Positions 10,226-45,034 of a stretch of DNA of 64,000 bases are shown one piece after another. Where the stretch lies: NCBI GenBank assembly GCA_963695855.1, contig CAVOHZ010000010.1, positions 64,001 through 128,000 on the forward strand, given 5' to 3'. Position 1 is the stretch's first letter; each line of letters opens with the position of its first letter. Source of the DNA: an uncultured Nitrososphaerales archaeon (GTDB lineage Archaea; Thermoproteota; Nitrososphaeria; Nitrososphaerales; Nitrososphaeraceae). The notes below the pieces were generated by a model. The model did no database searches and was not told the origin of the DNA. It saw nothing but the letters and a program-made list of their open reading frames with translations. Position numbers and translations under genes: made by a program.

Positions 10226-10694
10226 TCTTGGTTGATAAAGTTGAGGTTGACACATACATTTACCAGGTTTTTATCGAAGTTTATTCGGTCACCAAGTCCG
10301 TTACCATTTTCTGTATTTGCTAGGTCTGCTGCTCCTCCTTCATTTGCTGCTGCCCAAGCAGCAGGGTCTTGAGGTATTTGTGTGATATCTACACCGTTTA
10401 CGTTAAGGTTCTTATTGAAAAATTTTATTTCTTGCTGATTTGCAATTTTTTTATCTTTTTTTGGTTCCGGATAATAACTATTATCATAGTTATCATATCC
10501 ATATCCATTATCGTCGTATCTGCTGTTATCATACTGGTCCCCGTATTGATCACCGTGGGAATATCTATTGTCATAATCTGCATCGTATGGTACTGCCTAT
10601 GCATTTGTATTTGTTGATGGGTTTAGAACCAATAGACCTGTCGCTAGTATTGCTGCCATTATAGAGGCCAACACTTATCTTTTTGTTGCTCATC
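10226..10694 (-). pseudogene. Decayed copy of a multi-copy secreted protein (paralog of 37686-38384)
   Basis: MSNKK/IVLASIMAAILATGLLVLNPS..NA*, a Tyr/Asp-rich tract, then NVNGVDITQIPQD...ANTENGNGLGDRINFDKNLVNVCVNLN, with frameshifts and stops. Confidence 0.85.
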
Positions 10695-11687: not shown

Positions 11688-13213
11688 TTATGCAGGGCAG
11701 AGATTTATGACAGATACACTATTACTACCAAATGAATTGCCCACATACATTCTCTTATTTACTGGGTCATAGGCTATACCAATTGGGTTATTTCCTACGT
11801 CAATTGTATTGATTACGGTGTTTGTTGTTGTATCAATTACAGAGACTTTACCTGGAACAGAACTACCTTGATTGGTCACATACATATCCCGATTTATGGG
11901 GTCAAAGGTTACAAATACTGGTAGGGCGAATGACGGATCCGTAATTGTTTTAATTACCATGTTTGTATTGGTAAAAATCACAGAGACAGTACCACCACTA
12001 AAATTGGTCACGTACATTCTGTTATTTACTGGGTCATAGGTTATATCAGTTGGTCCATCGCCTACTGTAATTGGACCGGCTACTACTGTGTTTGAATCGG
12101 TATCAATTACAGATACAGTATCATCGTCAAAATTGGTCACATACATTCTTTGATGATCTGGGTCATACGCTACACCCCATGGTCCATTACCTACTGTAAT
12201 TGGGGTTATTCCGTCTCCTACAATTCCATTAGTATCGATTTGAACTGGTGGGTTTTGTGTTGTATCAATTACAGAGACTGTATTGCTGCCAAGATTGGTC
12301 ACATACATTCTTTGATGTCCTGTTTCTGGGTCATAGGCTAAAGTAAGTGGTCTAGGTCCTACTGTAATTGGACCGGGGATTAAAGCTGGTGGGGTCGATG
12401 TAGTATTAATTCTAGAAACAGTAGTACCGCCAAACTCATTAGTGGTCACATACATCTGCTGATGAACAGGGTCATAGGCTATACCAAATGGGTCAGGTCC
12501 CAAACCTGGAATTGGAGTGCCCTCAATTTGTGCGTTTGTTGCTGTAGCAATTACAGATACACTATCACCTCCTTGAGTGACTACATACATTCTCTTATTT
12601 ACTGGGTCATATGCGATATCTTTTGGATTACGAATACTTCAGGTATAGGATTTGGATCAACTGTTACATCACATGGAAATATTGCCGGCAATAATGCTTT
12701 TTCGAAACAGTCAAAGAGACCCTGTACTACTCTATCTATCTCTGTATTTGTTTGAGATTTTACACCATTTTCTATTGCAGCCAATGCAACTTCTGGAGAA
12801 AAACCTAGGTCAAATACTTCATATTTAAGAGCAAGCTCTAGGTTTTCACAAATTTTAGACAGTTGTGCTGTATCATACGGGGCTGAATTTGATCCGGTCG
12901 TTAAACATGTTGCTCCCGAAACTATTGGTGATTTGTTACTACAATTTATATTATCAAAATTGACAATATTTATTGCTTTAATCAATGCATTGAGGAGAGT
13001 CATTGTTTGTGGAGCATTCAAGAAATTTAACCAATATTTTATACATTCTTCACATATTATTTGTTCATCCGTTAATTCCGATTGACTTGCCGAACCTGCT
13101 TGAGCTTGAAAAGTGGATACCGGTATTGCAGATACCTGCATTGGTATACTTGCCGTCGTTGCTAAAAAAAGCATGCTTACCAATGAGAGACCTAATATAG
13201 TTGACTTATGCAT
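11688..13213 (-). pseudogene. Secreted YVTN/YncE-type beta-propeller protein with N-terminal Cys-rich helical domain, split by one frameshift near 12640
   Basis: ORF 12599-13213 carries a signal peptide. The alternative frame reads [19 protein letters not shown] directly into ORF 11688-12590; together 7 AYDP..RMYVTN-type blades. Confidence 0.85.
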
Positions 13214-37685: not shown

Positions 37686-38384
37686 ATAGCCAATAAAAAG
37701 ATAGTTCTGGCTACTATCACCGTGATAGTAGCCGCAGGTCTACTGGCTCTAAACCCATCGATGATAGGATACGCACAAGCGCAAATGTACGACAATCAGT
37801 ACAGACACGACAATAACTATTACCAAGACGACAATAGATATAGTTATGATAAAAACGATCCAAAGAGTTCTCAAGTAGATATACAGAAAATAAATTGTGT
37901 GAACAGTAACATAAATGTCAATGGTGTAGATATTACCCAGATACCCCAAGACGATGCTGGCATAGGAGCAACAAATGAAGAAGCAGGTCCAGATGGAGCA
38001 AACACACAGAATGGCAAAGGGCTTACAGATATAATAAACTTCAAGAAGAAGCTTGTCAATATATGTGTAAATGTGAATGACAACGAAAAGGTAAAAGTTA
38101 CTCCTCCAGAAGAATAAGGAGACCAAGGATGTGAAGACTGTTTTAGGAATAATCTAGATGCAGATCAAATCGATTTACTACTGGAACGTGCAGTGATAGC
38201 ATTGCAAATCGTCAGAGGAGATATATCCCTTGAAGACCTATGCACAATACTAGATCTCATTGAAAATGGCCAAGATGAAACCCAAGCATTAAGCAGAATA
38301 ATAAATTCGATTGATGACTCCAAGACAAGCACAATACTGAATTGCTTGGTACAATTGCGATTAATTCACCCAATACAACCCTGA
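37686..38384 (+). pseudogene. Multi-copy secreted protein with C-terminal four-Cys domain; ATA at start position and in-frame TAA at 38115
   Basis: ORFs 37722-38117 and 38193-38384 share a frame; reading through gives PPEE*GDQGCEDCF...LEDLC...ILNCL; IANKKIVLA extends the signal peptide upstream. Confidence 0.82.
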
Positions 38385-38543
38385 AATCTTTTTTTCTTTT
38401 TTTTTAACATGAATAGTGTGATTAATCTATTATTACTCTAGCGCTATTGCTACCCCCAGCAATAAGATAAGTCGTAGAAGATTTTTTTCTTGCCTGATTT
38501 CTTAGTGTTGTCGTCTACGTTATAACTTTAGACAATTTAACAT

Positions 38544-41335: not shown

Positions 41336-42058
41336 GGCTGTGTTAACTTAAGACTGTTTCACCTCCAATTTTGAATACAATATTGTTTCTGATTTTTGCG
41401 TTATACAGATAAACAAATAATTTGATCCAATTGTATACATGCTGTAGATCACAATTATTCTTACTCTTAACAAAACATGGATAGTAATCATCAAAACATT
41501 CTGTTCTATCCTTGAAATACTGCATTACTCTTTCGATAAGGCTCTTCTCTAAAGGTGAATGCAACCTATGTTTCAGATTTAAAAAGTTGCATGCTTGTGG
41601 ATACCATGTACCTCCATCTGTGTATACAGTATGTTTTCCATACCTTGATACAAGCGATCTGATAAAATTTTCTGCTACAAACATGTTTCTCTCTTCTGAA
41701 ATATAGATTCCAAGTACAGATTTGTCAATTGGTTCAATACAGATCCACAACCAAAAATGTTGATTACCAATCTGAATTATAGTTTCATCTATGATGAACG
41801 CTGATACTCTTTTTCTCTTGTAAATCTGCAATGAACCAAACCGTTGAATCCATTTCCAAACAGCAACATAACTCCTTTTTTGGTCCTTAAACAGTTCCAA
41901 TGCTTTGGATGTATTTCGTAGACTGAGACCAAGAAAGTACAAATAAAGAGAATACATTACTATACATGTGGATGTTCTATTTCTGACAAATCTTAACAAC
42001 ATATGTTGTTAGAATAGAACCTTCACAGCTGTAGCTCTTTCCTTAAGTTAACAGGACC
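41336..42058 (-). mobile_element. IS6-family insertion sequence with 8-bp TSD
   Basis: TIRs GGCTGTGTTAACTTAAG / GGTCCTGTTAACTTAAG (revcomp); AAGTTATA at 41328-41335 and 42059-42066. Confidence 0.95.
41343..42002 (-). CDS. IS6-family DDE transposase
   Basis: GLSLRN, IDET, YTDGGTWY, IERVMQYFKDRTE. Confidence 0.93.
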   Translation of the reverse strand: MLLRFVRNRTSTCIVMYSLYLYFLGLSLRNTSKALELFKDQKRSYVAVWKWIQRFGSLQIYKRKRVSAFIIDETIIQIGNQHFWLWICIEPIDKSVLGIYISEERNMFVAENFIRSLVSRYGKHTVYTDGGTWYPQACNFLNLKHRLHSPLEKSLIERVMQYFKDRTECFDDYYPCFVKSKNNCDLQHVYNWIKLFVYLYNAKIRNNIVFKIGGETVLS

Positions 42059-42583: not shown

Positions 42584-45034
42584 TTACTTGAATGTCGGTA
42601 TTACATTAGGGAAGGATGGAGTTAATGTGGGTATTATATTAGGGAAGGAGGGAGTTATGCTGCCTACATCTAAGGAACTTGAATCTTTCTTTGCATTCTG
42701 TGTATCTATATCATTAAGATTTAATTGATTTTGTTCTTGTTGTTTTTGTTGCATTATTGCACTACCAGAATTCAATAGTCTAGTATCTTTTTGTTGTTGC
42801 ATTATTGCACTACCAGAATTCAATAGTCTAGTATCTTTTTGTTGTTGTTCTTGTTGCATTATTGCACTACCAGAATTCAATAGTCTAGTATCTTTTTGTT
42901 GTTGCATTATTGCACTACCAGAATTCAATAGTCTAGTATCTTTTTGTTGTTGTTCTTGTTGTTTTTGTTGTTGTTTTACAGGTTGTTCTTGTTGTTTTGG
43001 TTGCATTATTGCACTACCAGAATCCCACATTCTAGTATCTTTTTGTTGTTGTTCTTGTTGTTTTTGTTGTTGTTTTACAGGTTGTTCTTGTTGTTTTTGT
43101 TGTTGTTTTACAGGTTGTTCTTGTTGTTTTGGTTGCATTATTGCACTACCAGAATCCCACATTCTAGTATCTTTTTGTTGTTGTTTTTGTTGTTGTTTTA
43201 CAGGTTGTTCTTGTTGTTTTTGTTGTTGTTTTACAGGTTGTTCTTGTTGTTTTTGTTGGATTATTGCACTACCAGAATTCAATAGTCTAGTATCTTTTTG
43301 TTGTTCTTGTTTTAATTGTTCTTGTTGTTGTTTTAATTGTTCTTGTTGTTTTTGCTGTTGTTTTAATTGTTGTTGTTGTTGTACAAGCTGTCCTTGTTCT
43401 TCTAATGAATTAACGGGGGATACTTGGTCTATGTCATTAGCTTCTACTTGGAAAACAATATTATTTTGTTCCGCTATACAGTTGATTATTGCCAAAATCA
43501 CTAAGCCAATATTATCTCCATTAATATTTCTAGGAGCTCCTTGGTAATTGGCAATATTTTCCTCTACATTATTTGCCCAGCTGATTAGTAAGCTAGATAA
43601 AGCACTAGATTTATTATCAGAAGACAATAACTTTGCTATCGCTTCACATATTTCCCAAAGATTAGCAGAATCGAATAAGGGAATCTGTTTTTGTGTAGTC
43701 AATTGGTCTAAATTAGCTCCATTTTCATTTAAAGTATTGATTAGCTCTTTGTAGGCTACTGTTATTTCATCTCTTGTCAGGAAATCCATATAGAAAAGAT
43801 AACAATCATCACATAAGTTTACTGGATCATTGTCTCCTGAAATTGTTCTAAATTTTACATTATTTTTACTATCTTTGTTATTTTCGCTATTTGATCTTAA
43901 ATTCTCTTTCTTGATTTTTTCCTCATCGTTTGTCTTGAGATTTTTTTCTTCAGATTTATCATTATCCTGTTTTTGATTCTGAGAAGATTCAGTTTCAGTA
44001 ATGATATCATCATCCTGTTCGGTATTGTTTTTATCTAATTTTATTTCAGCAATATTTGTACTTTTGGGATTAAGTTCTATTTCATCATTAATTTGCTTAT
44101 CTTCATTGATGTCATACGAATTTACCTTGTTTTTATTTCCTTCGTTGTATTCTTTCATGCCATCACTGTTGTATTCTTTCTCCTCATCACTGTTGTAGTC
44201 TTTCTTGTATTCTTTCTCATGGTCTTTGTTGTATTTGTATTCTTTCATGCCATCACTGTTGTATTCTTTCTCCTCATCACTGTTGTAGTCTTTGTTGTAT
44301 TCTTTCTCATGGTCTTTGTTGTATTTGTATTCTTTCATGCCATCACTGTTGTATTCTTTCTCCTCATCACTGTTGTAGTCTTTGTTGTATTCTTTCTCAT
44401 GGTCTTTGTTGTATTTGTATTCTTTCATGCCATCACTGTTGTATTCTTTCTCCTCATCACTGTTGTAGTCTTTGTTGTATTCTTTCTCATGGTCTTTGTT
44501 GTATTTGTATTCTTTCATGCCATCACTGTTGTATTCTTTCTCCTCATCACTGTTGTAGTCTTTGTTGTATTCTTTCTCATGGTCTTTGTTGTATTTGTAT
44601 TCTTTCATGCCATCACTGTTGTATTCTTTCTCCTCATCACTGTTGTAGTCTTTGTTGTATTCTTTCTCATGGTCTTTGTTGTATTTGTATTCTTTCATGC
44701 CATCACTGTTGTATTCTTTCTCCTCATCACTGTTGTAGTCTTTGTTGTATTCTTTCTCTCTATCATATACGTTGCCGTTTTGTGAAAAGTAATTATCGGG
44801 ATTTACTTCAGGATCCCCATAGTTATTATTTTGTTTATAATTTTCATAAGTGTCTTCATATGACCCGTATTCGTTATTAGAATTTTTTTCATTCATGTAA
44901 TAATCATATTTTTTTTCTTTCTCATCGCTAGACGCTATCACATCATTAATAATAAATGTTGGAGATGCAATATTGATAGCACCGGCTAGCAAAATAGCAG
45001 CTAAAAACACTGCTGTAATCTCTGACTTGTGCAT
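42584..45034 (-). CDS. Large secreted low-complexity repeat protein with central four-Cys helical domain
   Basis: Signal peptide, 30-aa Tyr/Glu/Lys repeats, CDDC..ICE..NCI domain, Gln-rich repeats. Confidence 0.85.
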   Translation of the reverse strand: MHKSEITAVFLAAILLAGAINIASPTFIINDVIASSDEKEKKYDYYMNEKNSNNEYGSYEDTYENYKQNNNYGDPEVNPDNYFSQNGNVYDREKEYNKDYNSDEEKEYNSDGMKEYKYNKDHEKEYNKDYNSDEEKEYNSDGMKEYKYNKDHEKEYNKDYNSDEEKEYNSDGMKEYKYNKDHEKEYNKDYNSDEEKEYNSDGMKEYKYNKDHEKEYNKDYNSDEEKEYNSDGMKEYKYNKDHEKEYNKDYNSDEEKEYNSDGMKEYKYNKDHEKEYKKDYNSDEEKEYNSDGMKEYNEGNKNKVNSYDINEDKQINDEIELNPKSTNIAEIKLDKNNTEQDDDIITETESSQNQKQDNDKSEEKNLKTNDEEKIKKENLRSNSENNKDSKNNVKFRTISGDNDPVNLCDDCYLFYMDFLTRDEITVAYKELINTLNENGANLDQLTTQKQIPLFDSANLWEICEAIAKLLSSDNKSSALSSLLISWANNVEENIANYQGAPRNINGDNIGLVILAIINCIAEQNNIVFQVEANDIDQVSPVNSLEEQGQLVQQQQQLKQQQKQQEQLKQQQEQLKQEQQKDTRLLNSGSAIIQQKQQEQPVKQQQKQQEQPVKQQQKQQQKDTRMWDSGSAIMQPKQQEQPVKQQQKQQEQPVKQQQKQQEQQQKDTRMWDSGSAIMQPKQQEQPVKQQQKQQEQQQKDTRLLNSGSAIMQQQKDTRLLNSGSAIMQQEQQQKDTRLLNSGSAIMQQQKDTRLLNSGSAIMQQKQQEQNQLNLNDIDTQNAKKDSSSLDVGSITPSFPNIIPTLTPSFPNVIPTFK
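42739..43380 (-). repeat. Coding Gln-rich repeat array with 7 KDTR(LLN/MWD)SGSAI(M/I)Q units
   Basis: Recurring attattgcactaccagaat...ctagtatctttttg among ttg runs. Confidence 0.9.
44147..44758 (-). repeat. 90-bp coding tandem repeat, about 6.8 near-identical copies
   Basis: Unit recurs at 44161, 44251, 44341, 44431, 44521, 44611, 44701; encodes EKEYNKDYNSDEEKEYNSDGMKEYKYNKDH. Confidence 0.95.

Follow-up and report, generated by a model that had tools for sequence, protein, structure and literature searches.

The stretch analysed here, referred to as the window, comprises 64,000 nucleotides of contig CAVOHZ010000010.1 (positions 64,001 to 128,000, forward strand) from the genome of an uncultured Nitrososphaerales archaeon (assembly GCA_963695855.1). 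It harbours three copies of a small module built around a CxxC motif, which an earlier note on this DNA had described as a four-cysteine helical unit shared by three secreted proteins. ORF and sequence checks recover all three segments with the positions and strands given there, and the CxxC...C...C pattern is real in every copy. The count of four cysteines holds for copies 2 and 3, but copy 1 has six conserved cysteines within the module. The features of the locus are the following.

11688..12638, minus strand: YVTN beta-propeller frame, open from stop to stop, once the C-terminal portion of the host of copy 1 (TIGR02276, E 9e-45 in 7 stretches)
12599..13213, minus strand: 204-aa ORF, host of copy 1, with MHKS signal peptide, long-form module and a short out-of-frame tail
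12626..12641, minus strand: zone in which the coding frame shifts from the module ORF to the propeller (tblastn alignments of P0006 and P0010 pass from frame -1 to frame -3)
about 12671-13066, minus strand: copy 1, long-form module with five predicted helices; its six conserved Cys are those of the CxxC, a pair in the loop, C3 and C4
about 13127-13213, minus strand: MHKS signal peptide of the copy 1 host
37722..38117, plus strand: 131-aa ORF with N-terminal hydrophobic segment, Tyr/Asp/Asn-rich stretch and NVNGVDITQIPQD constant region (NVNGVDITQIP), ended by a TAA at 38115-38117
38118..38384, plus strand: copy 3, short-form module (four Cys), an 88-codon open frame that adjoins the TAA and keeps the same phase
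38389..38405, plus strand: T-rich tract immediately past the TGA of the module, composed of 7 T, C and 9 T; none follows the TAA
42584..45034, minus strand: 816-aa ORF, host of copy 2, with MHKS signal peptide, Tyr/Asp/Lys repeats, module, Gln-rich repeats and conserved C-terminal tail
43436-43828, minus strand: copy 2, mid-form module with four Cys

Both hosts with an intact leader, the 204-aa and the 816-aa ORFs, begin with MHKS, as had been pointed out before. Leaders in the family are hydrophobic N-termini, often with MHKS at the start, and based on these the hosts would be secreted or extracellular proteins. In copy 1 the extra Cys pair is located within a loop of roughly 30 residues, and a seventh Cys follows immediately past the module. 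Residues 1-191 of the 204-aa ORF are 86% identical to the orthologue P0006. The 816-aa protein has four Cys in total, all of them inside the module. It contains tandem repeats with a 90-bp unit (6.8 copies at 44145-44758, 99% identity) and further tandem arrays at 42735-43382. Comparison with P0015 and P0016 aligns residues about 395-540 at 62% identity (blastp, E 1e-50 to 5e-55). Across genus-level orthologues strong conservation of this protein is confined to the module, and the leader and the C-terminal tail match weakly. The tail (42584-42660, minus strand) reads like PSFPN[IV]IP[ST]FK, is duplicated (33-bp unit, two copies) and is also found in the orthologues P0014-P0016 and in L008; it might serve as a signal for sorting or anchoring. 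A 219-aa ORF (41343-42002, minus strand) adjoins the 816-aa gene and by eye resembles the transposase-like ORF of L007.

In this assembly a frameshift interrupts the host of copy 1 and the in-frame TAA that of copy 3, which leaves one of the three window hosts unbroken. The earlier note had named a YVTN propeller, Tyr/Gln repeat arrays and the NVNG constant region as partners of the module. The Tyr- and Gln-rich arrays are indeed joined to copy 2, but the propeller and constant-region fusions are broken here and intact in relatives. In the orthologues P0006 and P0010 the module continues into the propeller in one frame. The frame of copy 3 has no start codon upstream of its CxxC; a one-frame tblastn alignment of the intact paralogue P0045 spans the TAA, and P0045 and a 224-aa paralogue in L004 show the unbroken fusion of constant region and short module. 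The fusions are real for the gene families and broken in this assembly, and both the frameshift and the TAA may be either genuine or assembly errors. The position of the T-rich tract fits a single transcription unit running through copy 3, of which it would be the putative terminator.

Three NVNG paralogues have a TAA in frame within their Glu-rich linker, immediately ahead of the module or of a module remnant (window 38115-38117, G000:C10:1235458-1235460 and G000:C10:335097-335099); the sequence reads GAA TAA in the two cases for which the DNA was inspected. Since one substitution turns GAA into TAA, these linker stops call for no more than the ordinary decay expected in a family of surface genes that evolves fast. 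Several genomic copies of the module are decayed, showing frameshifts, internal stops or loss of the CxxC, and some of the decayed and interrupted copies may lack function.

We then compared the copies on the basis of local alignments of 40 modules, which fall into three size classes: long (16 modules, represented by copy 1, six Cys), mid (11 modules, copy 2, four Cys) and short (13 modules, copy 3, four Cys). Pairwise BLASTP gives E values of 4e-4 for copies 1 and 2, 7e-4 for copies 1 and 3 and 0.76 for copies 2 and 3. These matches are weak, so the case for one family rests on profiles. Profile-profile alignment with hhalign clearly connects long and mid forms (98.5%, E 3.3e-15, 108 columns) as well as mid and short forms (90.9%, E 1.2e-6, 84 columns, with all four Cys in register), while the direct long-short comparison yields E 0.0036 over only 28 columns. 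With thinner alignments the E values are 4.5e-12, 0.005 and 0.009, the last for the long-short pair. Among 16,336 six-frame ORFs of the source genome the mid HMM matches long modules at E 1.7e-9 to 4e-7, and no cross-matches were found there between the short HMM and the long or mid HMMs. Since the direct long-short comparison is weak, copy 3 is tied to copy 1 indirectly, through the mid form, the shared architecture and the predicted topology. A profile built from the three segments, the check proposed in the earlier note, recovers six places in the source genome at E 3e-56 to 9e-7. A further candidate from this search, L007 at E 0.22, turned out on inspection to be a chance match. The three segments are copies of one family.

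Structure prediction with AlphaFold2 yields a helical bundle, as had been anticipated, with five helices in both models obtained. The model of copy 1 has a pLDDT of 94.6 and a pTM of 0.89, with helices at residues 4-17, 22-41, 73-90, 95-107 and 112-133; that of copy 3 is of moderate confidence (pLDDT 70.3), with helices at 2-12, 15-28, 38-50, 55-64 and 67-79. Dissimilar predicted folds would have spoken against a common module; the two models agree in the order of the five helices and in the helices that bear Cys. Helix 1 carries the CxxC, helix 3 the third Cys and helix 5 the fourth. Fold searches with the two models share 7 entries among the best 50 of 48,161 chains.

All 16 long modules have six Cys in the identical six columns, all 13 short modules have four, and 8 of the 11 mid modules have four, the other three missing only the third Cys (replaced by S, A and S). 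The last helix contains one conserved Cys in 40/40 modules, and the extra loop Cys are present or absent as a pair. Inside the CxxC the residues are EE in half of the modules (20/40), and the next residue is F in 22/40. The median net charge per module is -17 in the long, -14 in the mid and -14 in the short form. Disulfide stapling, which the earlier note had suggested, is plausible in view of the signal peptides, Cys numbers that are even, loop Cys that are gained as a pair and the 816-aa host that has no Cys outside the module. Under a disulfide model the three mid modules lacking the third Cys are left with an odd Cys.

The view that the module is shuffled among different secreted architectures is borne out in the source genome and in relatives, where its partners differ. 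Besides the YVTN propeller and the NVNG constant region, they comprise collagen (PF01391), Tyr/Asp/Lys and Gln repeats and a further module placed in tandem. The places newly found by the three-copy profile in the source genome are two 263-aa proteins, in which a long module is joined in tandem to a short one and collagen is absent, and a 467-aa protein that has collagen repeats followed by the module. The collagen triple helix is the commonest partner in relatives and had been missed in the earlier note; a Pfam scan and the ORF translations reveal no collagen in the three window hosts. We counted G-x-y triplets in 61 sequences (P0001-P0060 and a 469-aa ORF of the source genome, a set that includes 4 window pieces and 3 false positives). 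At least five triplets are present in 20 of the 61, and in all 20 the module is C-terminal to them. In the 15 cases with a long or mid module the CxxC begins 3-11 residues past the last triplet, and in the 5 cases with a short module the module lies 40-43 residues past the triplets. P0049, P0052 and P0053 are examples of a short module after collagen.

A second conserved motif, roughly YPTxDKKYECxTGPFEGFFVSSVEFCK, is located upstream of the collagen repeats in many members (P0008, P0009, P0011, P0012, P0025, P0030, P0031, P0035, P0042, P0044, P0052 and P0053); Pfam reports only Collagen for those carriers that were scanned.

The NVNG constant region occurs in 24 ORFs of the source genome, 11 of which contain the module in the same ORF, and it has no match in Pfam or NCBIfam. 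This family of about 24 genes can be defined by KCVNSNINVNG[IV]DITQIP ... NLVNICVNVN and includes, for example, window 37722-38117 and L004 180-1013 and 2268-2942. Its C-terminal ends vary: some members carry a short module there, some a beta-rich TLTVAK...CTATNSITI domain, and others neither. A paralogue with NVNGVDITQIP at window 10228-10596 (minus strand), a 124-aa frame whose N-terminal part is 53% identical to P0045, ends naturally after the constant region and has no module.

Taken together, we consider it probable that the module is a lineage-restricted extracellular domain that would serve as a disulfide-stapled, strongly acidic head or connector of surface-matrix proteins in a soil ammonia-oxidising archaeon of the Nitrososphaeraceae. 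In such a domain two putative disulfides would tie helix 1 to helices 3 and 5 of a compact five-helix bundle, and in the long form a third, formed by the extra Cys pair, would close the loop of roughly 30 residues. The module would form the folded head or connector on extended, fast-evolving stalks such as collagen, the Tyr/Asp/Lys and Gln repeats and the NVNG region, or would sit beside the YVTN propeller. Its job is most likely non-enzymatic, that of a stable interaction knob through which surface or matrix proteins may bind each other or a wall component, and the knob might possibly bind cations as well. The present data show the family with its rarity and taxonomic range, the modular architectures, the predicted fold, the conservation of the cysteines and the acidity; secretion, which is read from the leaders, the disulfides with their pairing and the binding role are predictions.

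In 20 family members a signal peptide, a G-x-y stalk that varies in length and, next to it, a folded domain outside the collagen make up a layout reminiscent of the Bacillus exosporium nap protein BclA and the streptococcal proteins Scl1/Scl2. The end domain of BclA has a C1q-like beta fold, and the V domain of Scl is a two-helix unit N-terminal to the collagen. The module, in contrast, is predicted to be a Cys-stapled five-helix bundle, and the three window hosts have no collagen.

Prokaryotic collagen-like proteins generally need a neighbouring trimerisation domain, and the module might be just this, a collagen-associated trimerisation or registration domain that nucleates and caps the preceding triple helix, with the CxxC perhaps engaged in interchain disulfides where the helix ends and the collagen-free hosts of the window trimerised too. 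Its invariable position C-terminal to the triplets and the close spacing of the CxxC in the long and mid cases would suit such a function, and the free Cys of the three-Cys variants could bond between chains. However, neither the window hosts nor the 263-aa proteins with their two tandem modules have any collagen, the short forms are set well apart from the triplets, and in the model the CxxC is located within helix 1 of a monomeric bundle. We consider this explanation unlikely.

A metal-binding module is about as improbable. Here the four Cys, contributed by three helices, would surround a structural or functional Zn or Cu ion, and cations would be captured with the help of the acidic surface in a copper-dependent ammonia oxidiser. 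The combination of a CxxC with two distant invariant Cys fits a site of this type, the strongly negative net charge is in line with it, and the three-Cys variants, which retain C1, C2 and C4, would be better tolerated by a metal site than by a disulfide pair. Cys4 metal sites are, however, unusual outside the cell, and the hosts carry secretion leaders. Furthermore, the long form gains its Cys strictly as a loop pair (16/16), which is disulfide-like, and scans against Pfam and NCBIfam reveal no match of the module to metal-binding families.

The statement of the earlier note that no named family is recognisable stands, as none was found in Pfam, NCBIfam or PDB sequences. The best Pfam E values are 0.012-0.1 for the three copies and for 13 modules, all under the cut-offs; the best NCBIfam E value for the module is 0.15, and a profile search of PDB sequences reaches E 0.37 at best. 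Foldseek and VIA-align name no family or fold for the module either. Structural scores against death-fold domains (PYD, DED, CARD, DD) fall into the range given by the tool as noise in the case of helical bundles. The module differs from these domains in having five predicted helices rather than six and in being putatively extracellular and Cys-stapled. In CHCH domains (twin CX3C/CX9C), helices are likewise locked by disulfide pairs from Cys spaced along a helix face. These domains are two-helix hairpins with symmetric motifs in the mitochondrial intermembrane space, while in the module, part of a protein secreted by an archaeon, a single CxxC helix would be linked to two others within a bundle of five; there is no sequence relation. 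Literature searches on Nitrosocosmicus, ammonia-oxidizing archaea and Thaumarchaeota returned no description of the module or of collagen-like proteins of this clade. Two supplements of PMC11559005 do not contain the terms 'collagen', 'YVTN' or 'triple helix' and list NHL propeller rows only.

The resemblance to a reduced saposin-like fold put forward in the earlier note is not supported by these searches. Of the six Cys of a saposin, the first and the last helix hold two each. The module shares with saposin-like proteins (SAPLIP; SapB_1/SapB_2) that it is small, secreted and all-helical, with a helix-1 CxxC braced to later helices and six Cys in the long form, and this loose likeness would favour a lipid- or membrane-binding domain. 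It is, however, a very acidic five-helix unit with one Cys in the last helix, and the mid and short forms have four Cys in total. No SapB match was detected for the three copies at E<=1 or for the 13 modules at E<=10, and saposin chains are absent from the best 50 rows of either wide fold search (48,161 chains). A saposin-like role appears very unlikely. No more credible is the idea that the short form, copy 3 included, is an unrelated helical domain mimicking the Cys pattern, with two families in the window: although it would account for the non-significant direct long-short profile comparison, the lack of cross-matches in the source genome in both directions and the BLASTP result for copies 2 and 3, it is at odds with the mid-short profile alignment and its Cys register, with the same order of five helices and with the same architectural slots, after collagen and in tandem after a long module.

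The extracellular head or connector domain that we favour is rare. A profile of 13 modules matches 35 of 1,835,955,588 representatives at E<=1e-3, 10 of them at E<=1e-10. Three of the 35 (P0034, P0036 and P0043) are zinc-finger or LRR proteins and were rejected as false positives, which leaves about 32 true family representatives among 1.84 billion. A word-indexed search of 5.8 billion proteins returns 8 hits for the 263-aa protein and 17 for the short module. Named relatives come only from 'Nitrososphaeraceae archaeon' and 'uncultured Nitrososphaerales archaeon', and a related-locus search with one module alignment finds 2 loci, both in one MAG of an uncultured Nitrososphaerales archaeon. Among 61 genomes of the family Nitrososphaeraceae the three-copy profile matches 4, namely the source genome and three of five genomes of the same genus, and none of 55 genomes from 17 other genera. 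The short-form profile reaches 9 of the 61 genomes, which belong to 3 of the 18 genera, and a single genome can contain as many as 10-11 matches.

The source genome contains about 20 modules, comprising 3 long modules, 2 mid modules along with two degenerate copies in a protein of 2154 aa, and about 14 matches of the short form. The 2154-aa ORF (G000:C10:25529-31990, plus strand) is located about 32 kb upstream of the window, is Cys-rich and looks secreted. It ends in two degenerate tandem long modules with fewer Cys (hmmsearch E 1.3e-4 genome-wide), for which the alignment of the loop region is too ambiguous to derive the disulfide pairing from them. Sequencing runs that contain the stretch do so only in part and are soil metagenomes, the best share of 0.44 being too small to indicate habitat.

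With 3.55 Mb, a single Amt gene, a G+C content of 0.29-0.38 in the window and relatives in the Nitrososphaeraceae, the source genome can be compared with Nitrosocosmicus, for which PMC11559005 describes low G+C, a single Amt gene and similar genome traits. According to the same article, S-layer genes are missing in Nitrosocosmicus, the wall is thick (about 18 nm), the hair-like filaments measure about 30 nm, and the composition of wall and filaments is given as unknown. These parallels provide circumstantial evidence that the source organism belongs with an S-layer-less clade of the Nitrosocosmicus type.

A bolder and rather doubtful proposal is that the module proteins, i.e. collagen stalks with acidic heads, matrix proteins rich in repeats, fusions to the propeller and the NVNG family with its approximately 24 genes, build the thick wall and the hair-like coat of roughly 30 nm that ammonia oxidisers of the Nitrosocosmicus type have in place of an S-layer. 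The module would then be the common connector, and its dense negative charge might concentrate ammonium or copper. Based on a rise of 0.286 nm per residue in the triple helix, the collagen runs of the family (21-147 residues) would span about 6-42 nm if triple-helical. This span brackets the filament length given in PMC11559005.

What is new here is a domain family without a name, with a predicted fold that has no solved match; modular secreted surface proteins are a familiar kind of system. Ammonia oxidisers of the Nitrosocosmicus type are important soil nitrifiers, and the module family offers a concrete candidate gene set for a coat of unexplained composition. This gene set is rare and lineage-restricted, present in many copies, extracellular as judged by its leaders, and has in common one domain that is predicted to fold well. 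The module deserves a domain-family entry, which would end the bare annotation of these genes as hypothetical proteins, and, being small and predicted with high confidence, it is a straightforward target for structure and disulfide work.

A minor observation concerns the start of NVNG genes. The start MTHQTK of other paralogues reads ...VITHQTK... or ...VIANKK... in L004 2268-2942 (minus strand), in L016 and at window 37690-37725. These paralogues have an Ile codon instead of ATG, and the called start lies inside the hydrophobic leader; the Ile codon at the usual start position could be a near-cognate start or a sign of decay.
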